From positions 30,808-94,807 of the forward strand of contig JAZQZH010000021.1 of the NCBI GenBank assembly GCA_045633945.1: a stretch of 64,000 nt of DNA, in the 5' to 3' direction. Source of the stretch: Alphaproteobacteria bacterium. GTDB lineage: Bacteria > Pseudomonadota > Alphaproteobacteria > RF32 > CAG-239. A program made the translations under genes and the position numbers. Under the pieces are notes generated by a model. It saw only the letters and a program-made list of their open reading frames with translations, was not told where the DNA came from and ran no database searches. Of the stretch, positions 6,836 to 59,676 are shown piece by piece (position 1 is the first letter of the stretch; every line of letters begins with the position of its first letter).

Positions 6836-7879
6836 TTATTTTAGTGGTAAAATAGGCATCATATTATTGCTTTTTTGCCCTGGTTCCATAATAACTTTTT
6901 TAGTTTTTTTCAAAACATTTTCCATTGTCTCAAGATATAATCTTTTGGATGTAACTATTTTACCTGTTTTATACGCATTATATATAGAAGAAAAACGTTT
7001 TGCTTCACCTTCAGCTTTGCTTATAGCCGCTTCTTTGTATGCTTCTGCATCCTGTCTTCTTTTTATGGCTTCACCTTGAGCTTTAGGTAGTACTTCATTT
7101 GCGTATGCTTCTGCTTCATTCTTAAATCTTTCAGCATCTGTTTTTGCTCTTTGTACCTCATTAAAAGCATCTACAACTTGTTTTGGAGGGTCTGCTTTTT
7201 GAAGCTTAACACGCACAACGTTTACACCTGTTTGGAAACCATCTAATAAGTTTTGTAATTCTATCTTTGTGTCGTTTTCTATTTTATCGCGATCGCCTGT
7301 GATAATTGCCTCCATTTTGGATTGGCCAATAATTTCACGTAATACTGACTGCGCAGCAACTCTAACAGTTGATTCTGGAGTTCTAGTTTTAAATAGGAAA
7401 TCTTTTGCATCTTTTATATTCCATACAACGGTAAGATTTATATCTACAATATTTTCATCTCCTGTTAGCATATGGCTTTCGGTTAATTCATTTACACTAT
7501 TTCTAGTTCCGTATTCAGATTCGCTTGCGCCAAGATTTATGCTGCGCTCTTTACTGATATCGACAATATAAACTTGCTCAATAGGATACGGTAAATGATA
7601 GTGTAAGCCGGCACTTGTTGTTTCAACATATTTACCTAAACGCAAAATCACGCCTTCTTCACTCGGTTGAACCTGATAAAACCCAGATACAATCCATAAA
7701 AATAACAAAATGCCAATGATAATTTTATAATACCCGCCAAAATTATCTTTAGAGTTTTGCATTTTTGCAATTTTAGCAGAAAAATCAATAACCTTATTCG
7801 GGGACGAAGTATCACTTGATGTGTCCCAGGGATTAATATTGTATGTGACTGTTCTTTTTAACATGAAAACTAACCTCAA
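6836..7879 (-). CDS. hflK: Protease modulator HflK (SPFH/band-7)
   Basis: TM plus SPFH domain and a coiled-coil C-terminus (AEAYKEAAISKAEGEAKRF). Forms an hflK-hflC pair. Confidence 0.8.
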   Translation of the reverse strand: MRLVFMLKRTVTYNINPWDTSSDTSSPNKVIDFSAKIAKMQNSKDNFGGYYKIIIGILLFLWIVSGFYQVQPSEEGVILRLGKYVETTSAGLHYHLPYPIEQVYIVDISKERSINLGASESEYGTRNSVNELTESHMLTGDENIVDINLTVVWNIKDAKDFLFKTRTPESTVRVAAQSVLREIIGQSKMEAIITGDRDKIENDTKIELQNLLDGFQTGVNVVRVKLQKADPPKQVVDAFNEVQRAKTDAERFKNEAEAYANEVLPKAQGEAIKRRQDAEAYKEAAISKAEGEAKRFSSIYNAYKTGKIVTSKRLYLETMENVLKKTKKVIMEPGQKSNNMMPILPLK

Positions 7880-22080: not shown

Positions 22081-22617
22081 TTGGAGGAAAAATATTCCAA
22101 AGAAGAGATGAAGTCAATTCGAATTGGTTTAATGTCTCTATTAGTAATTTTAGTTGTTGTATTTATTACAATTTCACATAACACATCTATAAAAAATGAT
22201 GGGTTAGGTGAAACATATAATATTTATGCTGATTTTGGACGAACCGATGGTCTAAATTTGGGGGACGCGGTTCGTATGTCTGGAGTAACAATTGGTAGAG
22301 TGGTAGCTAATAAATTAGATGAAAATTATACAACAAGATTAACTCTAGAAATATCATCTAATATTAAAATTCCAGATGATAGTAGCGCATCAATAGTTAG
22401 TTTCGGTTTAATTGGCGGGAAATATGTTGAGATAGATGTTGGTGGTTCTGAAGAATATATGGCCAAAGAAAGTACCATTGGATACACACAAGATGCTATG
22501 GTTTTAGAAGAATTGTTAGAGCGCATAATATCTTTGGGAAAGATGAAAAAAGATGCAATAAAAGATGAAAACATTGAAGTAATAGAAGAAGTAGCAGAAG
22601 GAGAAGGTAATGAATAA
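22081..22617 (+). CDS. mlaD: MCE-domain protein (MlaD-like), copy 1
   Basis: N-terminal TM plus MCE domain (YNIYADFGRTDGLNLGDAVRMSGVTIGRVVANKLD...IVSFGLIGGKYVEIDVG). Ends with an acidic tail. Confidence 0.7.
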   Translation: MEEKYSKEEMKSIRIGLMSLLVILVVVFITISHNTSIKNDGLGETYNIYADFGRTDGLNLGDAVRMSGVTIGRVVANKLDENYTTRLTLEISSNIKIPDDSSASIVSFGLIGGKYVEIDVGGSEEYMAKESTIGYTQDAMVLEELLERIISLGKMKKDAIKDENIEVIEEVAEGEGNE

Positions 22618-27351: not shown

Positions 27352-28101
27352 TTGGTGATGACGGCTATGTTTGATTTATTATATACATTATTTAAATATA
27401 AAGAAAAAGATCTGAAAGATGAGCTAGGGTATTATCCTGAAAAGGTAAGTGTGTCAGCTTTTCCTGAGAGAAGATATTTGTGGACATCTAGATTCTTAGT
27501 TGTGTTTTCTTGTATTAGCATGTGTGTTACCATGATTTTAGGATGTGTATTGTGTTTGATGATACCGCAAAAAAAATCAGAAGTTATGCCACTACAGATT
27601 GATTATAAAAAGCATGAGGTTACACGTATGCAGTACGCTGAATATAATGCTTTTGCAAGTAATCTTGTTACAGATAGTGTTATGGCTGATTATATCATAA
27701 ACAGATACACTATTGGTGAAGAATTTGAAGAGTTGGCTAATCGTTATAGTGAAAATGAATTTTTCTATTTGGCTTCAAGTGAAGAGGTGTGGGGGGAGTT
27801 TGAGAGAACAGAGAAGCCATATTTTGAGATGCTACAAAAGACTGGTGTGCGAAGAAAAGTGATAATTGAACAGAGTTATCCTGTCTCATTTAACTTTTGG
27901 CAAGTTCGTTTTCAGACAGTAGATACATATCCTAATAGTGATGAAAAATTAGTTAGTAGCTGGTTGGCATCTATTAGAATGACATTTAGTTTTACAAAAT
28001 ATGACAATAAAAAACAGGGACTAAAAAATCCATACGGTACAAGTGTTGTTGTATATAATTTATCATATTTAGGTCGTAAAACAGTAAAAAAAGAGGAATA
28101 A
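27352..28101 (+). CDS. VirB8-like bitopic protein (NTF2-like periplasmic domain); alternative: Tim44-like domain protein
   Basis: Cytoplasmic N-terminus, a single TM (FLVVFSCISMCVTMILGCVLCLMI), then a ~180-aa domain ending ...LKNPYGTSVVVYNLSY, which resembles the VirB8 NPxG(F)xV..Y C-terminal signature. Confidence 0.4.
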   Translation: MVMTAMFDLLYTLFKYKEKDLKDELGYYPEKVSVSAFPERRYLWTSRFLVVFSCISMCVTMILGCVLCLMIPQKKSEVMPLQIDYKKHEVTRMQYAEYNAFASNLVTDSVMADYIINRYTIGEEFEELANRYSENEFFYLASSEEVWGEFERTEKPYFEMLQKTGVRRKVIIEQSYPVSFNFWQVRFQTVDTYPNSDEKLVSSWLASIRMTFSFTKYDNKKQGLKNPYGTSVVVYNLSYLGRKTVKKEE

Positions 28102-35488: not shown

Positions 35489-36151
35489 TTATAATCTGTT
35501 TGAGATTCTTTTTAGTGCATCTTCATTGGCTAGTACTTTGTCGTAGAACTTTTCTAAGAACCAATCAATATTTTCACCTTCTTCAATAATCATTTGATAA
35601 AAGCGTTTTCTATACTCAATAACCATACTTACATTTGATATAGATACATCTACAGCTTGAATGCGATTTTGTTTGCCTCTAATTAGTTTGAATTCAACAG
35701 GAATTTTTTCGACAGGAACCTCACCGGCGAATTCTCCCAACATAACAGAACAGGTAACGGTTGTAAATTTTGGATATTCTACTACATCGTCAATACTAAA
35801 AGATATGTTGGATGAAGTAAACTTTATATTAAATTGTTTATATAAACTCAATATGTATCTTTGAAATAAATTATTATATCTAGTTTTCTGAGAGTTATTC
35901 ATTTTTCTTGCATATTTTCCAATTACAAACTTGGAGACATACTCAATATTTATGTCTTCTAAAATCATTTGATCGAGTTTTGCGTATTTTTCTACAGTGT
36001 TCTCCATCCCTAATGTCTGTAGTAACTCCTGTCCTTTATCGTTAGCCCAAACTCTAGCTTCTTCAGCATTAATAGAGACCTCTGAAGCTTTAACCATGCC
36101 TCCCCAAAAAATAAATGTTATATATAATAAAAAATGCAAGAATTTAATCAT
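35489..36151 (-). CDS. mlaC: Phospholipid-binding periplasmic protein MlaC (Ttg2D/toluene-tolerance family)
   Basis: Signal peptide plus Ttg2D-like fold sequence (...YVSKFVIGKYARKMNNSQKTRYNNLFQRYILSLY...). Confidence 0.7.
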   Translation of the reverse strand: MIKFLHFLLYITFIFWGGMVKASEVSINAEEARVWANDKGQELLQTLGMENTVEKYAKLDQMILEDINIEYVSKFVIGKYARKMNNSQKTRYNNLFQRYILSLYKQFNIKFTSSNISFSIDDVVEYPKFTTVTCSVMLGEFAGEVPVEKIPVEFKLIRGKQNRIQAVDVSISNVSMVIEYRKRFYQMIIEEGENIDWFLEKFYDKVLANEDALKRISNRL

Positions 36152-41885: not shown

Positions 41886-44800
41886 TTATCGTTGGTTTTG
41901 ATTTGGATTAAAAGGAGCCTGTGTTCCCTTTCTATCAATAACAATGCTTCTAGTCTCTACATTGGCGTCTATATCATTAGGGCTAACATTCTCAGAAATA
42001 ACTGTACCATCATTCAAATTATTTGATTTTATAATATCAACAGTAAACTCTCTTTCCTCTGTAATTTCATATTCATTACCATCGACAATGTCAAAACCAA
42101 TTTGAACAGGCTTCTCAGAAACAACTGGTAAAGGACGAAGATATAGGCGATCAAAACTATCTGTGCTAGGAACAGTTACTCCAGATGTGGTTCTTTCAAT
42201 GCTATATGTTCCTGCTTCTCCGCAGTCTCCGGCTTGGAAGTATCTTACAACTACATTTTTCGTTCCTGTAACACCATCAATTGTACCATTCTCATTTACT
42301 CTATCTATAACTTCTTTTACATGAGGAGCCATTTCTGGAGAAATATCTTCGCTACAACCTTTTAAGTAGTTTATTGTTGCGGTAATTTCTTTAGAAAATT
42401 CACCGTGTTGATCATTTGACCATGCAACCATTTGCTTCACAGAGAACATTGATTGTTCAACACTCAATCCTTCAAAAATACCTCCTTTAGCTCTCATTTC
42501 ATCAGTAATCATTGATGAGAAGAAGTCATATGCATTATCGCCGTAACGGTCTTTGAAGAATGTTTGCATTGCATCAAATTGTCTTTGAGTAATACCCGAA
42601 TTGTTATATCCGCCACGTTCTTCTACGTTTCCTGCTGCAGGTGTTCCTATTTCAACATCTTTAGAGTCAGGAACTACTTCTGCATTATCCCAATCAAGCG
42701 CAACATCGCTTGCATAAGATGTAACATGTGTTTCAGTATATGTGGCTTCTTCTAAAGTGTTAGACACGTTATTTAACTGAGTACTAGAATATACATTATC
42801 TTCTATATTGGAGCTATTATTAATAAAATTATTTGATGCAACATCTGATTGAGTTACTGCATTGTCTAAGTTTTCAGTCATAGATGTATTAACTACAGAA
42901 CCACTATTATCATAAATAGAAGCAGAGCTATCATGAGCCTCAACATTGCCGCTATGGGATAAATTTTCTGCATTGGTATTTATTACAATTTCTCTATTTT
43001 CAGTATTTAGAGTTATGTCATCGCTACCCCAAGAGCCAACTAATTTTCCATCATCAAGATTATTTGATTGATAGATATCTACATTATATTGTTTTACATC
43101 TTCAATAGTAATTGTTTGTCCTGCGGTAGTATCAAAACCTACTTGTACCTCAGAATAAGGAGTGGGGACAACATCTTCAGGTTCTGAAACTATTTTGGCT
43201 ACAGGTTCGAATACTGTTTTGTTTTCTACAGTTACTGTAGATAATGTATTTTCTCCTCCGCAATTGATTTCGCGAGAAGTAACAATAGTATTCATTTTTC
43301 CTTCAACACCTAAAATGCTACCATCATCCATTACACTATCTAATACTAAGCCGTCTTGATAGGTTAGAGTAGATAATGTTTTACATTCAAAGAAACTGTC
43401 AAACTTTTTAATATCATCATGATGTTGCCATAAATTCCAAGAAGACATTCTCTCATATTTAAAGAGTACTTCATCTCTTGTCATTCCTTCGAAGGCACCG
43501 CCTGATTGTAGCATATCATCAGTGATTCTAGAATAATATTCTTGATATTTTTCAGGTCCACCCCAAAAAGTTTGTAGTCGATTCCATTGATTTCTTGTTA
43601 TGCCAGATTCTTTTGACCAGTCACTAGGAGCTTGAACTGTTTTTGGAACAACATCTTCAGTCACTGTTTCCACAGTAGTTTCATTATTTTCTGTTAATGA
43701 TGTTGTTTCATGGGCTTCAACAGGTTCAGGAGTGCTAGTTGCAGGCATATTAGCTTGAGTATTAGTTTCTGTATCAGTATCAAGGGCTGCATAAGCAATA
43801 AAAGCAGAAGCTGCGCCAAAACCTACAACAGCAAGAGCTTTGTCCCAGAAATCTTTGTTTTTATTTTTAAGAGTAGCAATAGTATTTGTTGCTCCATGAA
43901 CAGAGGAAACAGCTAGGCTAGCAAGTCTTTGTGCTCCACGTGCTGCAATAGCACCTGTAGCACCAAAAGTTCCGCTTACAACAGCTCCTGCAGCACCTAA
44001 TCCTATAAGTCCTGCTGCACTCCCCCATCCAGCTTCTTTAAAGTATTCTTTTCTTGATTCTTTATTGCTGAATATAGAATTAGATGCTTTTTTAAGTCTT
44101 TCCATAAAGGTTGTTTTTTTGTCTTTAGGATTATTTTTTGATAAACGAGCATCGCGTCTAGCTTTTGTGATAATTGGCCATACCCAAGATGATGCAACTT
44201 TGTACGCACCATATGCTACAACTGCAGTTCCTAGCCATGGAGCGCCAATGGCGGTTGCGCCGATTAACCCACTAACAGCTGCAATATCTGTAATTGTTTT
44301 TGGAGCTCTATCGCGCATGTTGTTGGCAAATTCATATCGTTGCCCCCAAATTTGTTTGGCTTTCTGAGAAAAAGATTCCTTTGCTCTAGAGATAAAATTG
44401 CTTGCTTTATTTAGAAAAGATTTTGCATTCTCAGATTTTGCAGCTGCTGATAATACTGAGAGTTTGTGTGCGTATTTGCCCGCATTATATTCAGTTTCAG
44501 CACATGATGCTATAACAATATCAGCATGAACTTTAACTTTTTGATTAAAATCTGCAGCTTTATCTTGAAGTTCCATGTTGCCTAAAGCAAGTTGTTGATT
44601 TTGGAAAAACTCTTCATTATCTTCAGTTAGAGCTTTTTCAGCATTAGGAACATTATCTGCAATTTGAGCAGCGGTCCGTAGATGCATTAAAGAGCCTAAG
44701 AATGATGTTTTTATTTCTTTTTTTAGATATTCTATTTTTTTATCATCAGTCAGTTCGGAAAATTCAGAGCTTTTAGATTGCTCGCACATAACATCCAGTT

Positions 44801-45194
44801 TAGTTTTTTCAACGAGCATACTGATATATTTTTCTTTTTCTTCTTGCGATAGCTCATAAACGTTATCTCCATTATTATCTATAACTGGAGTGTTATTAAT
44901 AGCTAGTGATACTTCTTCATCTTCAAGTAGGCTTTTTTCAAAATCATTATTATCTAGTTTATTATATAAAAACTCAGTATTTTTAGCTAAAACCTCAGCA
45001 GATACACTAAGTCGTTCATTATCAGCATGTTTTTGTTTAGATAATTTTTCATAGTTACGAGCCTCTATTAATATCTGAGCAATTTCTTTATCATGCTCTT
45101 CAATGAGTTTGATGGCTTTTTCAAAAGTTGCTTGATCGGATTCTACAAATCCACCTGCAATATTATATGCCTCATCAATGGTCATTAAATTCAT
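41886..45194 (-). CDS. Large orphan protein: coiled-coil N-terminus, glycine-zipper hydrophobic hairpins, Thr/Glu-rich linker, tandemly duplicated ~230-aa C-terminal module
   Basis: I prefer the start at 45194 (MNLMTIDEAYN) with RBS AGGAGT 9 nt upstream; the track start is 45230. The hydrophobic region (track residues ~313-482) is GLIGATAIGAPWLGTAVVAYGAY ... GWGSAAGLIGLGAAGAVVSGTFGATGAIAARGA ... ALAVVGFGAASAFIAYAAL. Residues 543-757 and 879-1114 are paralogous (GIT(R/Q)xQ...QTF...GG.FEG...VGFD...NNL.DG). Confidence 0.6.
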   Translation of the reverse strand: MNLMTIDEAYNIAGGFVESDQATFEKAIKLIEEHDKEIAQILIEARNYEKLSKQKHADNERLSVSAEVLAKNTEFLYNKLDNNDFEKSLLEDEEVSLAINNTPVIDNNGDNVYELSQEEKEKYISMLVEKTKLDVMCEQSKSSEFSELTDDKKIEYLKKEIKTSFLGSLMHLRTAAQIADNVPNAEKALTEDNEEFFQNQQLALGNMELQDKAADFNQKVKVHADIVIASCAETEYNAGKYAHKLSVLSAAAKSENAKSFLNKASNFISRAKESFSQKAKQIWGQRYEFANNMRDRAPKTITDIAAVSGLIGATAIGAPWLGTAVVAYGAYKVASSWVWPIITKARRDARLSKNNPKDKKTTFMERLKKASNSIFSNKESRKEYFKEAGWGSAAGLIGLGAAGAVVSGTFGATGAIAARGAQRLASLAVSSVHGATNTIATLKNKNKDFWDKALAVVGFGAASAFIAYAALDTDTETNTQANMPATSTPEPVEAHETTSLTENNETTVETVTEDVVPKTVQAPSDWSKESGITRNQWNRLQTFWGGPEKYQEYYSRITDDMLQSGGAFEGMTRDEVLFKYERMSSWNLWQHHDDIKKFDSFFECKTLSTLTYQDGLVLDSVMDDGSILGVEGKMNTIVTSREINCGGENTLSTVTVENKTVFEPVAKIVSEPEDVVPTPYSEVQVGFDTTAGQTITIEDVKQYNVDIYQSNNLDDGKLVGSWGSDDITLNTENREIVINTNAENLSHSGNVEAHDSSASIYDNSGSVVNTSMTENLDNAVTQSDVASNNFINNSSNIEDNVYSSTQLNNVSNTLEEATYTETHVTSYASDVALDWDNAEVVPDSKDVEIGTPAAGNVEERGGYNNSGITQRQFDAMQTFFKDRYGDNAYDFFSSMITDEMRAKGGIFEGLSVEQSMFSVKQMVAWSNDQHGEFSKEITATINYLKGCSEDISPEMAPHVKEVIDRVNENGTIDGVTGTKNVVVRYFQAGDCGEAGTYSIERTTSGVTVPSTDSFDRLYLRPLPVVSEKPVQIGFDIVDGNEYEITEEREFTVDIIKSNNLNDGTVISENVSPNDIDANVETRSIVIDRKGTQAPFNPNQNQR

Positions 45195-45387
45195 CTTATT
45201 TTTACTCCTAAAATCGCTATTCTGCTGCACTATACCCTATTTAATGAATAAATTCAATATTTTTTTTGTCAATTTTAAATATTTTTTAAAAAATTGTCAA
45301 ATTTTTGTGTTTTTTACGATGCTGAAAAAAATGTTGCTAAATATAATCAATAATATTATAAGACAAAAAAACAACAAAGAGGAACTT

Positions 45388-49763: not shown

Positions 49764-50720
49764 ATGAAAAAAATATTGAGTGTAGTTACTTGTTCTGTTT
49801 TAGCAGCCTGCGCATGCAATGACGCTAGTTGGGAAGATGTAGATAACGTTACTTTTGAAGAAGTTGTATATGAAGATAATGCGCCAATTGTTGTTGAGCC
49901 TGCGCCAGTATATGTACAAGTTCCTCAAGCTGTTCAAGACTGTGCATGTAGCGAAGTTGCAAAGCCATGCTATCAACCATGCGCTTGTCAAACAATGCCA
50001 AAGGTTGAACCCAAAATAATAAAGACAAGAAAAATAATTACAACAACTACAACATATGAAGAGCCTTGCGGTAAGCCTGTATGTGAACCAGTGGTTACAG
50101 TAAATGAAGAAGTTGTTCCTGTTGAGGAAGAAGGTGAAGTTGTGATTTTTGAGCCAGAAGTTGTAGCAGAGCCAGTAGTTAAAGTGGAAAAAGAAGTTGT
50201 TGTTCCTGTAGTTAACATAACTAAAAAAGAGGTTGCACCATCTGCTCCAGTTGAAGATGCTGTAAAAATTACAGTAGAAAAGAGCCCATATCATTCAAAT
50301 GTTGTTGATATTCGTAAATCAGATGCAAAAGTGGCGTTAGGAACAGTTGTTAAATATTCTCCAGAAGCTTATATTGTAGTAGCAACCCGCGCAACCAATC
50401 GTATGCTTCAAGATACATCTGCAATATACGATAGTGCTTCAAAGAAGATTTATATCAAAGATATTAATCTTTTAAGTTCAGATCTTCCATATGGTGGACA
50501 TCGCTTAAAAGGGGCTACAAAAGAAATTATTAGTGGCTCTAATACTTTTGAAGTTGTAAACAATATCAAAGATGCAGATTTTGTTGTTGAACCAAATGCA
50601 GATTGGTATGTTTCAGCAAATAGCGATATTCCAGCATTACAATATACAATGAGATTACTAGATAAAAATGGTAATAAGATTGATGAATGGATTGAGGTAA
50701 TAAGACAAGTTAAAGAATAG
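49764..50720 (+). CDS. Lipoprotein with a Pro/Val/Glu-rich linker and a C-terminal LpoB/COG3417-like domain
   Basis: Lipobox VLAAC. Linker VVPVEEEGEVVIFEPEVVAEPVVKVEKEVVVPVVN. Its C-terminal ~150 aa resemble LpoB, the penicillin-binding-protein activator (inference, moderate). Confidence 0.4.
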   Translation: MKKILSVVTCSVLAACACNDASWEDVDNVTFEEVVYEDNAPIVVEPAPVYVQVPQAVQDCACSEVAKPCYQPCACQTMPKVEPKIIKTRKIITTTTTYEEPCGKPVCEPVVTVNEEVVPVEEEGEVVIFEPEVVAEPVVKVEKEVVVPVVNITKKEVAPSAPVEDAVKITVEKSPYHSNVVDIRKSDAKVALGTVVKYSPEAYIVVATRATNRMLQDTSAIYDSASKKIYIKDINLLSSDLPYGGHRLKGATKEIISGSNTFEVVNNIKDADFVVEPNADWYVSANSDIPALQYTMRLLDKNGNKIDEWIEVIRQVKE

Positions 50721-50728
50721 AGATAATA

Positions 50729-51583
50729 ATGTCTAAAGCCTTACTTAAGCTATCTGTTTTTTTTGTATTGTTAATTTTTAATACAATGTCAAAAGCAGAT
50801 AGCTTTTTTTTACCAATTAGCTCAACATATTGTACTCCTAAGCAAAGTGATGCGGAAGATTCTGATGTTTATCTTAAAGCATACGATAAAACAGCATATT
50901 TAGCTGTGAAGTCATCTCAATATATAAAAGAGAAAATACTTAATTTTGATGACTATAATGCTAGTATATTTATTTATAAGGTGATAGATAGCGCCATAAA
51001 AGATGTTATAACAAGCACTACTAAAGATAATGACAAAGAAATATGTTTAAATTTTAGCGCCTTCATAGATAGTTCTAAAATAGATGAGCTTCTAAACAAC
51101 TACAATGATAAAAATATAGAAAAAGAAGACATTAAAAAGCTCACAAAAGAAATAAATGAGATGCTTCCAAAATCAATTTATGAAACAAAAGATAGCATCC
51201 CTTTAATATATATAGAAGATCTAGAATATTATAATAAAAAAACAACAAAAGTATATACTCGAGATATATCTGAAGAACTCTCATTTGAACCTCGTATTTT
51301 AATTACTGAAAATAGAGAGCTTGCAGATTATTATATCATTCCTAAATTAGTAAAATCAGCGGTTGATTTTATTGATGATGAAAAGAGTAGATATAGTATG
51401 TCGCTAGTAATTGAGGTGCATAATTTAGAAAATATCACTATAATTAAAGAAGAAAAAAGTCGATATATAATAATCAGTAACAATGATGATATACAAGAAA
51501 TAGCCCACAAAATGATAAACAAACTTATAAAAGATGCTTTAAATTCTTTAAAAGAAAAAATAAGTATTTTATTAAAAGAATAA
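50729..51583 (+). CDS. Hypothetical secreted protein
   Basis: Signal peptide (LSVFFVLLIFNTMSKA). Lies 9 nt downstream of the lipoprotein gene. No recognisable family. Confidence 0.45.
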   Translation: MSKALLKLSVFFVLLIFNTMSKADSFFLPISSTYCTPKQSDAEDSDVYLKAYDKTAYLAVKSSQYIKEKILNFDDYNASIFIYKVIDSAIKDVITSTTKDNDKEICLNFSAFIDSSKIDELLNNYNDKNIEKEDIKKLTKEINEMLPKSIYETKDSIPLIYIEDLEYYNKKTTKVYTRDISEELSFEPRILITENRELADYYIIPKLVKSAVDFIDDEKSRYSMSLVIEVHNLENITIIKEEKSRYIIISNNDDIQEIAHKMINKLIKDALNSLKEKISILLKE

Positions 51584-54264: not shown

Positions 54265-57200
54265 TTATTTAACAGATAAAGCTATTTTTTTACCAACACT
54301 TCCTGATAAGGTGATTTTATCTACATTATTTGCAGCAAATATATATTTATTGTGATTTTTTATTGGTTTATATTCATTTTTACTACGTAGGATATATTTA
54401 CCAACTTCGCCGCTACCAGAGATTGTTGATGTATTTGTAAAAACATAATGTTTATGTTGAAGCTCTTTTTTATATTCAGCAACAATATCAGATGTTTTTA
54501 CATCAATATTTCTTGTGAAATTATCATTTGAATTCGCAAAAAACTTTAGGAACTGCTTTTCTTTTTGGGGTTCAAGTTTCTCTTTTATTTTATCCTCATT
54601 GATAGTATTTTCATCAATAGATACTTTTATACCTTCTTCTTTTGTAGCATCTTTCTTGAAATAAAATCCCTTTCTTTTATGTGATGTTAATGATGATTTT
54701 ATATCAATATCTACTAAATCTGTTTTTCCAATATTCATAGCAATAACAGGATTTATTTTTAATGTATTTGAATTATTCTCTGTTTCTATTGCTACTTCTT
54801 GCTGCTTGATATTTTTTAAAACCATTTCCTCTTTTTGAGAAATATTATATATTATATCTGATAACGCTAGTTTAGTTTTATCTACAATAGAATTATCAAT
54901 AGCAACAACTGGCTTCTGAGCAATATCAATATCTTCAGCTACAACAACTGGTTCTAGGTTAGTCTTAGTATCTTCAGCTATAACAACTGGTTCTAGGTTA
55001 GTCTTAATATCTTCAGCTACAACAACTGGTTCTAGGTTAGTCTTAATATCTTCAGCTACAATAACTGGTTCTAGGTTAGTCTTAATATCTTCAGCTATAA
55101 CAACTGGTTCTAGGTTAGTCTTAATATCTTCAGCTACAACAACTGGTTCTAGGTTAGTCTTAGTATCTTCAGCTATAACAACTGGTTCTAGGTTAGTATC
55201 AATATCTTCAGCTACAACAACTGGTTCTAGGTTAGTATCAATATCTTCAGCTACAACAACTGGTTCTAGGTTAGTCTTAATATCTTCAGCTACAACAACT
55301 GGTTCTAGGTTAGTCTTAATATCTTCAGCTATAACAACTGGTTCTAGGTTAGTATCAATATCTTCAGCTACAACAACTGGTTCTAGGTTAGTATCAATAT
55401 CTTCAGCTATAACAATTGGTTCTAGATTAGTCTTAATATCTTCAGCTATAACAACTGGTTCTAGGTTAGACTCAATAGTTTTTTCTGCAACTACAAAGGT
55501 ATTCATTTCTGGAATATTATTAACTATACTCTTTATTCCTGTTTCACTAGCAGGTTGAATGTCGTGCTTGTTTTTAGCTTTGAGTGTATTAAATAAAGAG
55601 GCTACACTATTTGCAAAAGTATTAAAAGATATTTTTAACTCATCTTTGTTTTTTAAAATACTACTTTCTGTAGTATTATTATTTTTAATTTCATTATCTT
55701 TTATAATGTTGTCATTTTTTTTTTCTAATTCAGGTGCATTATTTTTTGTCTGATTAGTATTTTTAACAACAGGTGAACTAATATCTATTTCATCCACTGT
55801 TTCTGGTGGATAGAGTAAATATGTATCATAATCTCTAGCTTCAATATCTAAAACAGATCTAAATTCATCAATACTACTTACAATGTTATCGTTTAATTGT
55901 TTGATATAAGATAACATTGTATATAGAGCTTGAACAGCCATATCATTATTTCTCTTCATATCAATAAGACTGCTACTATCGATAATATTTAGATAACTAT
56001 CTCTAATTCTGTTATATAATACGCTAATTTTATCACTATTATCAGATATTTTATCAGTATCTTCTTTTAATTTTGCAACTGTTTCTTCAGCAATAGGTTC
56101 ATCTGTTGTTTTTAACAGTTCAATCTGTTTCATGTAAACCTCAACTAAACTATTGTAGTAAGAAGAGTTGTTTTGTGCCAAATTAAATAACCATGTAAGT
56201 TTACTAAAACTGTTGTCGAATATATATTTACTTTCAGCGATGAAGTTTTCTTCAAGAGATTTAGGTAAATATATTATTTTAGATGACTCTTTTGCAATTT
56301 TAGCCTCTATATCCATCAAATCTTTTTCACTATTTTGCCCTTTTAGTGCAGTGCCAAGATTATTAATATTATTTTCAACTTCTTTTAATTTCGCTTGTAG
56401 TTGATTATATGCTTTTACAATATCTTTATTGTTAGTTGTAGGCTTAAATTTAATGAAATCCAAAGACATGCGCTCTATGTTTTGCTTAGTTTCATCAATA
56501 CTTTTTTGTAAAATATCGATTCTACTTTGTAAAATACCATCTTTTTGCTTTTTTATGCCTTCATTTTCAATTAAAATTCGATTCTCAACCTCTTTAATAC
56601 GCTCTATACTTTCGTTAATATTAATTTTTAACTCAGGATTCGATACATCTCCAGATAGGTTAAATTTAACCACGTCAGAAAATGAAGCATTATTATAAAA
56701 TATATTAAAGTCAGACGTTATTAACCAACTACCTAAATTTACATTTATTTTCATGTCTAAATTTTCAACAGGTGAGCTTAAAACAGAATTATCTGATACA
56801 AATACACCTTTTGAAAACTCAAATTTACCACTTCCTTTATTAAACAATGTCTTGCCCATTCTTAGGTTGCTTGCAATAACTTCTTCCAAATCTTTAATAG
56901 ATTTGCGTTGTTCTAATTCAAATTTGATAACATCCAAATCCCAACCATTCATAACAAGATTTGTGAGACTATAATTACCCTTGGCGCTTAAATTATCATA
57001 AAATGCTTTTTCTGAAAGTAGATTAGAAGCAAAACTACCTTTTGAGTTTAAGATGGCTTTTTCAATCTTATATATACTACCTCCAAATGATGGTGCATTA
57101 TATTTAGATATATTATAATTACCTGTAATCTTTGCTAAATTTTTACTATCAAGAATGAAGTTAACATCAAATACACTGTCATCTTTTTTTATGTTAAATT

Positions 57201-59676
57201 TTTCGACATTAATTACACCATCATTGAGCATGACTCTTGTCTTTAAGTCTGCATATTTTTGATTATTCCAAATAGGTTGTTTTATATTAGCTGTAATATC
57301 AAAATCAACATTATTAAGATAAGATAAATCAATCTTTTCATCAGATAGATTTAATTTATCAATAAATGTGTTTGTTGTGCTTATTAATGGTTTTTCTTGT
57401 TTTTTACTAATATTAAACATATTATTTATGTTAAAGTTATCAAAGTTTAAATCAGCAAGAATCTTCGCTTTAGATGTTGTATTATCTACTTTAACAATGC
57501 CTTGAATATGATTTGTTCCTAAGTGTGCGTTTATATTATTTAATTCAAATAAGTTAAATGATCCAACAATCTGTGCGTTCAGAGTAAATGTTGTAACAGG
57601 AAGATCTGGTTTATAATTACTAAAACCAATAGCTTGGGCAAATTTTGTAAAGTTATTAGCTTTTAATTCAATATCTCCATTTAAAGATAGATCCCCATCT
57701 TTAGCATTTGCAGCTATACCCGTATATGAAATTTCTGTGTCGCCAAATTTTTGGATAGAGCTTATATTTAATTGGCTCATAGAACCATTTATAATACCTT
57801 GTGATGCAAAAGTTTTCCTTTTAAATATATCTTTCGAACCAGTATCTAAACCAATATTTGTCGCAAAACCAGGGAAGTTTGCTGTTTTAATATCATATGT
57901 TAGCTCTTCAAAATAAGGATTTGAATAAGGATTTTTAATATCTGCTTTAAGATTTATTTGAGAGCCAGCGAAGTTTTCAATAGAGAGAGATTCTATATTT
58001 AAATTGTTTTCATCCGCAACAAAATCAAATTGTAAGTTTTCTAAAGCAATATTATTGTAAACAGCATTTTTTATATTGATGGCTGCATCAGTTGTAAATT
58101 TACCTTTCCAAGGAGATAAATTTAGTTGATATAATAACTTATCTTCAAATGATTGCTTTTTATCATTTACATATGCTAAATCAACATATTTATCAAATAA
58201 TATTTTTTCTAAATCTGTTTGCAATATTACATGCGTTTCACCTTCATTAAATACAAAACCCAAATTTCCAGAAAAATTAGTGTTGTCTATCAAAGCTTTT
58301 GATAAAGCTACTTTAATAGCGTCTTTTCCGCCACTAATCATAAATTCAGCCTGAGCTCTACCAAATATAGATTTTTTATTTTCTTTAGACGCCTTTGCTG
58401 TAAGATTGATATTAAATAGTGAAGCAAAAGTTTTTATATCTTTACTTTCTAGAGTGTTTTCAAATATATACTCTAATTTTGGGGTTGTTGTTAATTTCCC
58501 TAAAGATTTAATGGTTGTTTCGCCTGGCATAGTAACGGCAAATCTATTAAGATTAATAACACCATCATTATATGTAACTCCCATGTTTAGCTTGTGAGCA
58601 GCTGCTCCTTTATATGTAGCATTATCAGATTTTACACTAATATCCATATCAACATTAGGAAGTTTTGTTTCTTCATTTATGTTATTTGAGTAGTTTACAA
58701 TATCTATACCTATGTTTTCTAATAAACTAAGGTCAAATTTTGACATATCAATATCAGAAGAAATATTCCACTTTTCTCCCTTGCTAAGATTCACAAAACC
58801 ATTACCAATAGTGTTGTTTCCATATTTCACATTAAAGTTATTTAATTTTAAAATTTCATTATCTTTACCATATGTAAAAGATACATACATAGATTCGTTA
58901 TATTTATTAGATATACTATCTTCTCCAAATACAGTTGTAAGTGTTTCATATAAGCTTTTACCCTCTAATATAACAGTTCCCTTAGGTTTATCTCCTAAAA
59001 CACCATCAATAGAAAATTTAGAACCTATTACTCCACAATTTATATTCATTTTAACTTTAAGGTCTTTATTATTTTCGATGCTACCACTAAAATTAACTTC
59101 TTTTTTGTTATGAGTGAATTTACCGCTAGTTTTGTATGGACCTTTTAATGAAGGAGCACTTATGCTAGCAGATACTTTAGGTAAAGTAAATTTATTTTTA
59201 TTTTGTTTATTTTCAAAAGTTATAGAGGATTCTACTATCTTTACATCATTGAAAGAAACTTCAATATTTCCTGATTTATTTTTCCCTGCTTTAGTAGAGC
59301 TACCCCAATTGCGAGTACCTTTTTCATCAGTTACTAAGCTAATTTCAGCACCAGTTAAAGTCATACCACTTAAGATAAACTGATTACTCAAAAGAGGCAA
59401 AAAATCGACATTAGCAGAAATATTATTAACCTCTGCTAATGGTGTGCGAGAGTTACCATGAGTGAATTTAACGAGTCCTGCTGAAAATTTAGGCTTTGGA
59501 AAAAGCTCAATACTTAAATTTCCATCGATTGCTGCTTTAAGTCCAGTGATTTGAGATAATCTATGCGCAACAATTGATTTATGTTTGTTCCAGTCAAGCG
59601 TATAAATATATATTCCTAAACCTGTAATGGCTAGAATTAAAAAACAAAGAATACCTATAATAACCTTTTTTAGCAC
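54265..59676 (-). CDS. Giant AsmA/TamB-family envelope protein with an internal coiled-coil and an acidic 13-aa tandem-repeat array
   Basis: N-terminal TM plus AsmA N-domain (LSQITGLKAAIDGNLSIELFPKPKFSAGLVKFTHG). Long beta-rich body. Coiled-coil segment (IKEVENRILIENEGIKKQKDGILQSRIDILQKSIDETKQNIERM). About 15 copies of (TNLEPVVVAEDIK). 1803 aa. Confidence 0.6.
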   Translation of the reverse strand: MLKKVIIGILCFLILAITGLGIYIYTLDWNKHKSIVAHRLSQITGLKAAIDGNLSIELFPKPKFSAGLVKFTHGNSRTPLAEVNNISANVDFLPLLSNQFILSGMTLTGAEISLVTDEKGTRNWGSSTKAGKNKSGNIEVSFNDVKIVESSITFENKQNKNKFTLPKVSASISAPSLKGPYKTSGKFTHNKKEVNFSGSIENNKDLKVKMNINCGVIGSKFSIDGVLGDKPKGTVILEGKSLYETLTTVFGEDSISNKYNESMYVSFTYGKDNEILKLNNFNVKYGNNTIGNGFVNLSKGEKWNISSDIDMSKFDLSLLENIGIDIVNYSNNINEETKLPNVDMDISVKSDNATYKGAAAHKLNMGVTYNDGVINLNRFAVTMPGETTIKSLGKLTTTPKLEYIFENTLESKDIKTFASLFNINLTAKASKENKKSIFGRAQAEFMISGGKDAIKVALSKALIDNTNFSGNLGFVFNEGETHVILQTDLEKILFDKYVDLAYVNDKKQSFEDKLLYQLNLSPWKGKFTTDAAINIKNAVYNNIALENLQFDFVADENNLNIESLSIENFAGSQINLKADIKNPYSNPYFEELTYDIKTANFPGFATNIGLDTGSKDIFKRKTFASQGIINGSMSQLNISSIQKFGDTEISYTGIAANAKDGDLSLNGDIELKANNFTKFAQAIGFSNYKPDLPVTTFTLNAQIVGSFNLFELNNINAHLGTNHIQGIVKVDNTTSKAKILADLNFDNFNINNMFNISKKQEKPLISTTNTFIDKLNLSDEKIDLSYLNNVDFDITANIKQPIWNNQKYADLKTRVMLNDGVINVEKFNIKKDDSVFDVNFILDSKNLAKITGNYNISKYNAPSFGGSIYKIEKAILNSKGSFASNLLSEKAFYDNLSAKGNYSLTNLVMNGWDLDVIKFELEQRKSIKDLEEVIASNLRMGKTLFNKGSGKFEFSKGVFVSDNSVLSSPVENLDMKINVNLGSWLITSDFNIFYNNASFSDVVKFNLSGDVSNPELKININESIERIKEVENRILIENEGIKKQKDGILQSRIDILQKSIDETKQNIERMSLDFIKFKPTTNNKDIVKAYNQLQAKLKEVENNINNLGTALKGQNSEKDLMDIEAKIAKESSKIIYLPKSLEENFIAESKYIFDNSFSKLTWLFNLAQNNSSYYNSLVEVYMKQIELLKTTDEPIAEETVAKLKEDTDKISDNSDKISVLYNRIRDSYLNIIDSSSLIDMKRNNDMAVQALYTMLSYIKQLNDNIVSSIDEFRSVLDIEARDYDTYLLYPPETVDEIDISSPVVKNTNQTKNNAPELEKKNDNIIKDNEIKNNNTTESSILKNKDELKISFNTFANSVASLFNTLKAKNKHDIQPASETGIKSIVNNIPEMNTFVVAEKTIESNLEPVVIAEDIKTNLEPIVIAEDIDTNLEPVVVAEDIDTNLEPVVIAEDIKTNLEPVVVAEDIKTNLEPVVVAEDIDTNLEPVVVAEDIDTNLEPVVIAEDTKTNLEPVVVAEDIKTNLEPVVIAEDIKTNLEPVIVAEDIKTNLEPVVVAEDIKTNLEPVVIAEDTKTNLEPVVVAEDIDIAQKPVVAIDNSIVDKTKLALSDIIYNISQKEEMVLKNIKQQEVAIETENNSNTLKINPVIAMNIGKTDLVDIDIKSSLTSHKRKGFYFKKDATKEEGIKVSIDENTINEDKIKEKLEPQKEKQFLKFFANSNDNFTRNIDVKTSDIVAEYKKELQHKHYVFTNTSTISGSGEVGKYILRSKNEYKPIKNHNKYIFAANNVDKITLSGSVGKKIALSVK
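54906..55483. repeat. 39-nt direct tandem repeat, ~15 copies, in frame inside the AsmA-like gene
   Basis: Unit CTGGTTCTAGGTTAGTCTTAATATCTTCAGCTACAACAA with point variants (GTC/GTA, ACA/ATA, TTA/TCA). Encodes TNLEPV(V/I)(V/I)AED(I/T)(K/D) on the minus strand. Confidence 0.9.

Follow-up and report, generated by a model that had tools for sequence, protein, structure and literature searches.

The window, that is, the whole stretch of 64,000 nucleotides that was analysed, carries on its minus strand a gene whose 1803-aa product is identical to the database protein P0001 and which contains a 39-nt tandem repeat. The features of this gene are given below, from the whole ORF and then from the N-terminal to the C-terminal end of the protein.

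54265..59676, minus strand: ORF of 1803 aa (GTG start; the coordinates include the stop codon), giant AsmA-like protein specific to the clade
59602..59673, minus strand: N-terminal hydrophobic helix, aa 2-25, presumed inner-membrane anchor, LKKVIIGILCFLILAITGLGIYIY (sequence and AF2 helix)
59095..59667, minus strand: Pfam AsmA (PF05170) match, aa 4-194 (88.9 bits, cut-off 29.8)
56623..59541, minus strand: predicted long beta-sheet domain, aa 46-1018, about 51 strands, putative lipid groove (AF2)
55849..56616, minus strand: conserved helical domain, aa 1021-1276, five long predicted helices (AF2)
54877..55776, minus strand: hypervariable linker, aa 1301-1600 (conservation profile, linker lengths, pLDDT of about 25-45)
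55471-55509, minus strand: degenerate repeat unit on the N-terminal side of the array, EMNTFVVAEKTIE
54925-55470, minus strand: array of 14 clean units of 39 nt, TNLEPVV[V/I]AEDI[K/D], aa 1403-1584
54886-54924, minus strand: degenerate repeat unit on the C-terminal side of the array, IAQKPVVAIDNSI
54805..54900, minus strand: semi-conserved predicted helix after the array, aa 1593-1624 (..DKTKLALSDII..; AF2 pLDDT 58-75)
54724..54759, minus strand: motif K-I-N-P-V-I-A-M-N-I-G-K, aa 1640-1651 (family alignment)
54268..54453, minus strand: duplicated C-terminal motif, aa 1742-1803, [KN]-Y-[VIL]-F ... S-G-x-[VI]-G-K occurring twice, ending ALSVK

When analysed with Tandem Repeats Finder, the array extended from position 54928 to 55477 (54928-55477), with a period of 39, 14.1 copies, 94% matches, no indels and a score of 953; no other array of more than two copies was detected in the 64-kb window. 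The units, of 13 codons each, follow one another head-to-tail and leave the reading frame of the 1803-aa ORF unbroken. A search for the consensus unit with at most three mismatches gave 13 matches, all within the array, whereas none of 100 shuffles gave a match. The array is a genuine minisatellite with an in-frame period of 39 bp and, as a length-variable tract, is of an ordinary kind. The interval proposed for it in the initial annotation (54906-55483) brackets it, and the fifteen copies counted there were roughly right, corresponding to 14 clean units and two decayed ones. Among the units, 8 of the 39 columns are variable, and seven of the changes alter the encoded residue (V/I at three codons, I/T, S/T and K/D). 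The K/D swap, which had been described as conservative, results from two linked changes (AAG vs GAT) and is a charge reversal.

As the copy number is based on one assembly of a metagenome-derived genome, an array, or a number of copies, produced by short-read mis-assembly was considered. Other assemblies of the family do break or frameshift at their arrays: the P0048 contig is truncated inside the repeat, the tail of its product resembling a translated sequencing adapter, and the array of L025 does not continue the frame of the ORF upstream of it. However, the array described here is exactly in frame, the ORF runs on into the conserved C-terminus, and in an independent assembly of the closest relative this site again carries an array with a 39-nt period. 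Furthermore, the longest exact self-match within the array is 90 nt, which can be resolved by 150-nt reads or large k-mers; since this is below k=141, the value found in the contig title of the relative's assembly, a large-k assembler could resolve the copy number. An artefact of assembly is, in our opinion, hardly conceivable.

The array has a net charge of -38, compared with -40 for the whole protein. Val and Ile account for 30% of its residues, and there is one Pro per 13 residues. Its charge-hydropathy value (0.518, boundary 0.488) places it on the 'folded' side, unlike classic low-hydrophobicity disordered sequences. In the AF2 model, the pLDDT of the array is about 30 and DSSP assigns no secondary-structure elements to it; the alignment is uninformative in this region, which may partly account for the low pLDDT. 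The array has no predicted structure and is apparently unstructured, so that the polyproline or beta-solenoid spacer envisaged earlier does not agree with the model. A protein search with the array alone as query returned no match, not even the 1803-aa protein itself.

Concerning the host protein, the Pfam AsmA profile matched aa 4-194 with an E-value of 4.8e-25 and a score above its cut-off, and this is the sole part of the protein matched by Pfam or NCBIfam. Together with the long beta-rich domain of the AF2 model, this match bears out the attribution of the gene to the AsmA family. The hydrophobic segment deduced from the sequence (aa 5-27) overlaps the AF2 helix and is among the most conserved blocks of the family. 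The earlier description of the flanks as AsmA/TamB-like holds for the AsmA half: neither AsmA_2 nor TamB/DUF490 gave a Pfam match anywhere in the protein, and DUF490 gave none in its four segments or in 12 family members. The NCBIfam equivalog models gave 74.3 bits for NF008091 (AsmA; cut-off 412) and 15.2 bits for TIGR02099 (YhdP; cut-off 519). With these scores far below the cut-offs and no AsmA_2 or DUF490 match, the protein is, as judged from profile models, AsmA-like and not an orthologue of E. coli AsmA or YhdP.

In the AF2 model of the N-terminal part (m4820daf65825, mean pLDDT 81), the beta-sheet domain is mostly predicted with values of 80-95. Foldseek matched it in the PDB to ApoB100 (E=1.9e-5), LptD (E=9e-4) and TamB (9xdc_B, E=1.4e-3). 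By the rule of thumb of 0.48 nm per strand, 51 strands would correspond to a groove of about 24 nm, enough to span the periplasm. The following helical domain (model m34c9fd7ea456) has pLDDT values of about 85-95 and is kept across the family, and no significant PDB or Pfam match was obtained for it; the element initially called a coiled coil is predicted as several long helices. The array lies about 380 residues past the end of the beta-groove, within a C-terminal extension and, according to the model, it is not part of the lipid groove.

After the array, T1601 is nearly invariant in the family alignment. In the motif at aa 1640-1651, N1642 is invariant and K1640, P1643 and A1646 are at least 90% conserved in a 25-sequence alignment. 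The duplicated C-terminal motif shows a 36-aa internal period in many homologues, with Y1778, F1780 and G1792 invariant; in the AF2 model, the C-terminal motifs are predicted with low confidence. The post-groove extension has no Pfam match, a profile search of PDB sequences gave no match, and Foldseek with the C-terminal model returned only generic helical bundles, none of them significant. Pfam matches to DUF6847 and Lysostaphin_N (the latter at 12.7 bits for a cut-off of 60) were rejected, being below the cut-offs and absent from other family members. Rfam and tRNA scans of the window were empty, a promoter and terminator scan of this AT-rich DNA was uninformative, and the gene neighbourhood, which presents the same housekeeping synteny throughout the clade, provided no functional link.

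About 60 full-length homologues of 1595-1972 aa with a common layout were collected, all of them from uncultured gut or rumen Alphaproteobacteria. The great length, the helices and the acidic linker, which had been noted as unusual, are not particular to this gene and belong to the layout conserved in a clade-specific family that comprises at least 60 proteins. A precomputed PF05170 match is recorded for most homologues, and for some a PF05359 match as well; among 1.84 billion cluster representatives, no more than 47 have the C-terminal extension. The family alignment shows conservation over aa 1-1300, a hypervariable stretch at aa 1301-1600, and a return of conservation at aa 1600-1675 and at the C-terminus. 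In a sister group whose proteins have about 1400 aa, the groove and the helical domain are followed by a short Pro/Glu-rich tail (EP/KP-like), which suggests that what is kept is composition, not sequence.

The linker has no conserved sequence and its length covers a three-fold range among the homologues (101-312 aa). Most homologues are devoid of an array and some of their linkers have only about 100 aa; therefore, a long tether is not required by the family. These properties make near-neutral expansion a serious rival to a tether function: the minisatellite would be slippage noise in an unconstrained linker, with no function beyond keeping the frame. That arrays of differing unit and period (39, 45 and 90 nt) come and go between close relatives is also what such a process would leave behind. 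On the other hand, in each of three separate lineages the array contributes about -30 to -38 net charge, and the core P-x-V-V-[VI]-A-E recurs in several arrays. Moreover, the motif [VI][VITA][VI]A[ED] is about 17-fold enriched in the linkers of array-free homologues (12 observed vs 0.7 expected); this enrichment, calculated on phylogenetically non-independent sequences, could also represent the decay of older arrays. On balance, we rate near-neutral expansion as rather unlikely, while taking it seriously.

A scan of genome contigs by an alignment-based method yielded contigs of relatives, where a single-protein query had found none. The closest relative (63% identity) contains at the same site a 39-nt array of 10.8 copies. 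In both genomes, the units are 94.3% identical within the array, and the identity falls to 62.2% between the two arrays. This high identity within each genome against the low identity between them indicates concerted evolution. The units of the two genomes share only the PVVVAE core, which is identical at the nucleotide level, the remainder having diverged.

Changes by whole units were observed between closer relatives. The L031 (9 x 15 aa) and P0033 (4 x 15 aa) proteins are 87% identical, and 63 of the 65 gap columns are in P0033, where they coincide with the array. In the second pair, 86% identical, L009 has 4 x 15 aa, L010 has a single non-repeated segment and no array, and one 45-residue gap separates them there. 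In both pairs, the length difference consists essentially of only 3-4 linker repeat units. Further lineages contain arrays of 45 or 90 nt at the same site. The initial annotation had proposed a recent expansion or contraction of a repeat prone to changes in copy number, and these comparisons support a repeat that is recent or homogenised, and dynamic (94% against 62% unit identity, 14 against 10.8 copies, and pairs differing by whole units). A copy number fixed in all relatives with diverged units was not what was found, nor did the flanks fail the AsmA profiles. The pair P0048 (1678 aa) and P0066 (1972 aa) was rejected as a case of copy-number variation, owing to the truncation of the former. 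In the protein clusters, P0001 and P0002 are singletons, and the 90% cluster of P0001 has one member. In JGI metagenome contigs, a search for the exact unit or for two PVV[V/I]AE cores 39 nt apart found no other contig.

The persistence of the core raises the possibility of a multivalent docking array, in which beta-strand-forming PVV[V/I]AE peptides, flanked by acidic 'gatekeeper' residues, would bind an envelope partner by strand addition and the copy number would tune avidity. The candidate partners would be the open edge of the protein's own groove, an outer-membrane POTRA/barrel protein or a TonB/TolA-type C-terminal domain; we take the array unit to resemble TonB-box peptides such as ETVVVTA. 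The conservation of the PVVVAE core between the closest two genomes while the rest of the unit diverged is consistent with this proposal, as are the similar cores in the arrays of distant lineages (EPEVVVAE, EPTVVAE and EPVAVIAE), the enrichment of the motif in array-free linkers and in C-terminal tails, and a beta-branched hydrophobic content unusually high for a disordered region. Nevertheless, only about 20% of the array-free homologues carry even one [VI][VITA][VI]A[ED] motif, some arrays are devoid of a PVV[V/I]AE-type core, for instance that of L009 with the unit VSDADTKELEVAQKN, and no significant similarity links the unit to the conserved motif NPVIAMNIGK (p = 0.03-0.98). A derivation of the unit from NPVIAMNIGK was likewise rejected, alignment scores being no better than those of shuffles. 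Docking by the repeat thus appears improbable to us. If it were true, copy number would tune the strength with which a clade-specific AsmA-like bridge is coupled to its partner, a mechanism undescribed for bacterial lipid-bridge proteins in the literature searched.

The gene has evolved much faster than its surroundings: relative to the closest relative, its identity is 63%, compared with 85-92% for the flanking genes. Acidic tandem repeats are typical of exposed antigens, and the organisms are host-associated and gut-dwelling. Such data would fit a surface-exposed, antigenically variable acidic repeat, comparable to acidic tandem-repeat proteins known from host-associated bacteria, whose changes in copy number would help to evade host antibodies or phages. 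Against this stand the uncleaved-type N-terminal membrane anchor and the AsmA-like periplasmic groove. In addition, searches of the C-terminal 800 aa revealed neither a secretion domain nor one for surface anchoring, and the C-terminus (...ALSVK) does not have the aromatic end residue of the usual outer-membrane-protein signal. A role as a surface antigen therefore seems very improbable.

The explanation that we favour, and consider probable, is that a minisatellite driven by slippage or recombination lengthens a flexible polyanionic tether in a clade-specific C-terminal extension. By the known biology of the family, the N-terminal anchor and the beta-groove of about 1000 aa would form a lipid-conducting bridge directed from the inner toward the outer membrane. 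Beyond the groove come, in this order, the helical domain of about 260 aa, the linker of 100-310 aa, the NPVIAMNIGK motif and the duplicated C-terminal motif. The array would have arisen, and would be kept homogeneous, through replication slippage or unequal recombination, as expected for concerted evolution, and its copy number would change on short evolutionary time-scales. In this protein it contributes about 180 residues and about 38 negative net charges, nearly all of the net charge of the molecule, and this addition would turn the linker into a long, self-repelling and flexible polyanion that tethers the C-terminal module to the helical domain.

The array would in this manner act as a flexible periplasmic tether whose exact length is probably only loosely constrained. 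The conserved C-terminal motifs are, on sequence grounds, a candidate outer-membrane docking element, which the tether would carry. The length-variable spacer of the initial annotation is plausible in the form of such a tether; the idea that it sets the span of the bridge is unsupported, the array being outside the bridge.

The copy-number variants of the tether that occur in nature could provide a ready-made length series. All family members come from uncultured gut Alphaproteobacteria, and experiments would therefore need heterologous systems. In practice, the repeat is of use as a strain marker, and it also calls for caution with assemblies from short reads, which are broken or frameshifted here.

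The repeat tract of TolA, another envelope protein, lies in a helical domain. Among E. coli strains, the in-frame repeat tract of tolA varies in copy number; its contraction is RecA-dependent and measurable, the protein is functional over a wide copy-number range, and a fitness or envelope phenotype depends on copy number (PMC3477136). The protein described here would resemble TolA in being an envelope protein that is anchored in the inner membrane, crosses the periplasm and has a repeat tract in frame. It belongs, however, to a different protein family, and no structure is predicted for its units, with their proline and beta-branched residues.

TonB possesses a proline-rich (Glu-Pro / Lys-Pro) periplasmic spacer, a short rigid rod of mixed charge. 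The array resembles this spacer in being a charged, proline-containing tract of low complexity that would join a membrane-anchored part to a C-terminal domain near the outer membrane, and the EP/KP-like tails of the sister group of about 1400 aa also recall it. The array differs from the spacer by its purely acidic, Val/Ile-rich composition, its single Pro in each 13-residue unit and its much greater length. The Arp protein of T. pallidum and the N-terminal domain of lysostaphin (13-residue repeats, PF25533) likewise contain long in-frame arrays of near-identical, short acidic units (about 13-20 aa), and the copy number of the acidic Arp repeats is variable (10.1101/2022.08.02.502389). This likeness is only compositional, those proteins being secreted or exposed and not AsmA-like bridges.

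Finally, AsmA, YhdP, TamB and YdbH are the AsmA-like lipid-bridge proteins of Proteobacteria, built on a repeating beta-groove (PMC10345924, PMC12447247, PMC11126948). How such bridges make contact with the outer membrane is a question still under study, and each characterised paralogue has its own C-terminal solution: hydrophobic helices in YhdP, the last strand together with YnbE in YdbH, and docking to TamA in TamB (PMC10345924, PMC12447247, PMC11126948). The present family would add a fourth C-terminal layout, in which a helical domain and a long acidic tether precede conserved terminal motifs; this layout is not modelled in Pfam and not mentioned in the AsmA reviews examined. With the four known proteins it shares the N-terminal membrane helix, the N-terminal AsmA match and a long predicted beta-sheet, whose size of about 1000 aa is comparable to that of YhdP and TamB and, as in YhdP, YdbH and TamB, specialised elements are situated at the C-terminal end. 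Unlike any of the four, it continues for about 780 more residues after the groove, made up of the 260-aa helical domain, the acidic linker of 100-310 aa and the conserved motifs.

Analysis with Tandem Repeats Finder revealed one strong array of period 39 at 54928-55477, with 14.1 copies, a match rate of 94%, no indels and a score of 953; no other array in the 64-kb window exceeds two copies. The near-perfect in-frame repeat described in the initial annotation was thereby confirmed, with 14 clean units and one decayed unit bordering them on each side, close to the fifteen copies counted there; the interpretation attached to it was borne out in part only. The gene and the array are located as follows:

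54265-59676, minus strand: AsmA-like open reading frame, 1803 aa, GTG start, containing the array
54925-55470, minus strand: array of 14 clean 13-codon units (aa 1403-1584), unit TNLEPVV[V/I]AEDI[K/D]

At up to 3 mismatches, the consensus unit gave 13 matches versus 0 in each of 100 shuffles, and none outside the array in the whole 64-kb window. Eight of the 39 columns vary among the units, and seven of these changes alter the amino acid. The K and D units are distinguished by two linked changes (AAG versus GAT) for which intermediates are absent, as predicted by whole-unit propagation rather than by point mutation. Although the copy number comes from a single metagenome-derived assembly, it is unlikely that the array is an assembly artefact: since the longest exact self-match within it is only 90 nt, a large-k short-read assembly could in principle resolve it.

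A second genome or contig of this species with the array was not found in the searches made. In the closest relative (loci L001/L004), a 39-nt array of 10.8 copies with unit EVKEEEIAPVVVA occupies the homologous site. Unit identity is 94.3% within each genome versus 62.2% between the two, whose units share only the core CCWGTTGTTGTAGCKGAAG (PVVVAE). High identity within and low identity between genomes is the signature of concerted evolution, in an array already present before the two species diverged. Other homologues, designated by locus (L) or database protein (P), also carry arrays.

Arrays in the linker of other homologues
L031: 15 aa x 9, unit PEVVVAEVKDVEASE
P0033: 15 aa x 4, unit EANEPVAVIAEVKEV
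L025 and P0069: 15 aa (x 9.7 in L025), units EPKADDKEVKVAEVT (L025) and EPKAEVKEVKVA.. (P0069)
L009: 15 aa x 4, unit VSDADTKELEVAQKN
P0066: 30 aa x 5, unit KEPTVVAENTTKESMVKPELAVTNVKGDVT

Between L031 and P0033 (87% identical), 63 of the 65 gap columns lie on the P0033 side, at the array, and L009 differs from L010 (86% identical, without array) by one 45-residue gap. As the length difference is almost confined to the array in both close pairs, linker copy number appears to change on short time-scales. The recent copy-number change put forward initially is thus supported, together with homogenisation, by these two pairs and by the comparison with the closest relative (14 versus 10.8 copies).

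Short-read assemblies break at such arrays. In L025, the 45-nt x 9.7 array (7147-7581 of that locus) does not share the frame of the open reading frame upstream of it, whose database product, P0010, ends at aa 1330; the frameshift upstream of the repeat is either an assembly error or the mark of a pseudogene. P0048 (1678 aa) stops inside the 30-aa repeat, and the final residues, DRKSTRLNSSHLN, resemble translated sequencing adapter; its full-length version, P0066, has 1972 aa.

The assignment of the host gene to the AsmA family was upheld. Pfam AsmA matched aa 4-194 (88.9 bits, cut-off 29.8), and no Pfam family matched the other segments; in particular, AsmA_2 and DUF490, the TamB profile, were without match in any of them. 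An AlphaFold2 model of aa 2-1200 (13 aligned sequences, mean pLDDT 81) opened with a helix (aa 2-25), continued with about 51 beta-strands as far as aa 1018 (pLDDT mostly 80-95) and then passed into long helices. Foldseek related it to lipid-associated beta-sheet proteins of the PDB, namely ApoB100, LptD and the TamB of a TamAB complex (9xdc_B, E=1.4e-3). Anchor, N-terminal profile match and long beta-sheet were all tested and all found, and the protein is of the AsmA-like kind. According to the NCBIfam equivalog models for AsmA and YhdP, which scored far under their cut-offs, it is not an orthologue of either E. coli protein.

If each beta-strand is taken, as a rule of thumb, to add 0.48 nm, 51 strands represent about 24 nm, so that the beta-sheet groove (aa 46-1018) alone could cross a periplasm. 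A second model (aa 996-1803) contained five long helices at aa 1021-1276 (pLDDT ~90), for which no significant PDB match was found. Further on, it placed a helix of moderate confidence at aa 1593-1624, and confidence was low at the C-terminus. The array had no predicted secondary structure (pLDDT ~30), unlike a polyproline or beta-solenoid spacer. It lies about 380 residues past the end of the groove; a role in setting the span of the bridge is not supported.

Homologues comprise about 60 proteins of 1595-1850 aa and one of 1972 aa, named, where a name is given, 'AsmA family protein' of uncultured Alphaproteobacteria. Thirty species-level loci were found in GTDB genomes; by record titles, these derive from gut metagenomes (human, ruminant, mouse and others). 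The family alignment is divided as follows:

aa 1-1300: conserved
aa 1301-1600: hypervariable linker, 101-312 aa long across homologues, usually net acidic
aa 1600-1675: conserved again, motif K-x-N-P-V-[IV]-A-[ML]-N-I-G-K
last ~60 aa: conserved, duplicated motif [KN]-Y-x-F...S-G-x-[VI]-G-K

All ~30 loci (L002-L031 included) share one gene order around the AsmA-like gene, with cytidine deaminase and nucleoside phosphorylase upstream, nucleotidyl transferase and nucleoside transporter downstream; this neighbourhood is a housekeeping one. With the closest relative, identity is 85-92% for those flanking proteins that were compared and 63% overall for the AsmA-like protein (groove 73%, helices 70%, linker 36-41%, C-terminus 57%); across the ~30 loci, it is 74-92% for the downstream nucleotidyl transferase and only 37-63% for the AsmA-like protein. 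The latter is encoded by a fast-evolving envelope gene, changing much faster than its neighbours. Near-neutral expansion within a tolerant linker is a serious rival to the reading of the array as a tether.

The array contains 47 acidic and 9 basic residues (net charge -38), nearly the whole net charge of the protein (-40), with 30% Val+Ile and one Pro per unit. With this composition it lies just across the charge-hydropathy boundary, on the 'folded' side, and is not a textbook disordered sequence; its short, strongly beta-prone hydrophobic cores are spaced by Pro and acidic residues. In array-free homologues, [VI][VITA][VI]A[ED] is enriched in linkers (12 observed, 0.7 expected) and C-terminal tails (9 versus 0.7), although it occurs in only about one in five of these non-independent sequences; the helical domain showed no enrichment. 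That the units form a multivalent array of docking peptides is improbable. A weak match to Pfam Lysostaphin_N, made of 13-residue acidic repeats, over 54877-55689 (minus strand; 12.7 bits, cut-off 60) was rejected as homology, the likeness being compositional.

Downstream of the array, K-I-N-P-V-I-A-M-N-I-G-K (aa 1640-1651; 54724-54759, minus strand) looks like a short linear motif: N1642 is invariant, K1640, P1643 and A1646 are at least 90% conserved, and the surroundings are otherwise variable and of low confidence. Its resemblance to the repeat unit was not significant. At the C-terminus (aa 1742-1803; 54268-54453, minus strand), an internally duplicated motif of ~36 aa, conserved across the family and modelled with low confidence, is net basic, whereas the array is acidic; this duplicated motif may be a docking element. 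When the C-terminal 800 aa were searched as a profile, only 47 of 1.84 billion cluster representatives matched: family members, their fragments and a sister group of ~1400 aa (P0094, P0100, P0101, P0063), in which groove and helical domain are followed by a short Pro/Glu-rich tail. This tail (EPxPEP / EPKP) is TonB-spacer-like and ends in a single ...SG.I... motif.

Elsewhere in the window, MlaC- and MlaD-family genes and an isolated VirB8-family gene (35489-36151, minus; 22081-22617, plus; 27352-28101, plus) confirm a diderm envelope but are unlinked to the AsmA-like locus; the MlaC and MlaD families serve outer-membrane lipid homeostasis. For an open reading frame of 1114 aa (41886-45230, minus), no Pfam match reached E<=0.01; its central hydrophobic segments are rich in Gly and Ala, and part of it is duplicated, G[IN]T[RQ].Q[WF]..[LM]QTF followed by ...VLFKYERM / ...SMFSVKQM occurring twice. 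Two adjacent frames of 318 aa (49764-50720, plus) and 284 aa (50729-51583, plus) matched no Pfam family, nor did their counterparts, called 321 and 283 aa, conserved beside the locus in the closest relative.

On the best-supported reading, the array is a minisatellite in which slippage or recombination would expand the repeat and thereby lengthen a polyanionic flexible tether. This tether would belong to a clade-specific C-terminal extension, running from the helical domain, which lies at the groove's distal end, to the conserved terminal motifs, which are docking candidates; surface exposure of the array is unlikely. Among known systems, the outer membrane is engaged by YhdP via hydrophobic C-terminal helices, by YdbH via its last strand and the lipoprotein YnbE, and by TamB, whose DUF490 domain is lacking here, via TamA (PMC12447247, PMC11126948, PMC10345924). 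The C-terminal extension is not mentioned in these three papers and has no Pfam model. The repeat is an ordinary kind of feature; the extension around it is an unusual and undescribed addition to a known kind of protein. The repeat itself has its closest analogue in E. coli tolA, which contains an in-frame tract whose copy number differs among strains, contracts in a RecA-dependent manner and modulates stress tolerance (PMC3477136).
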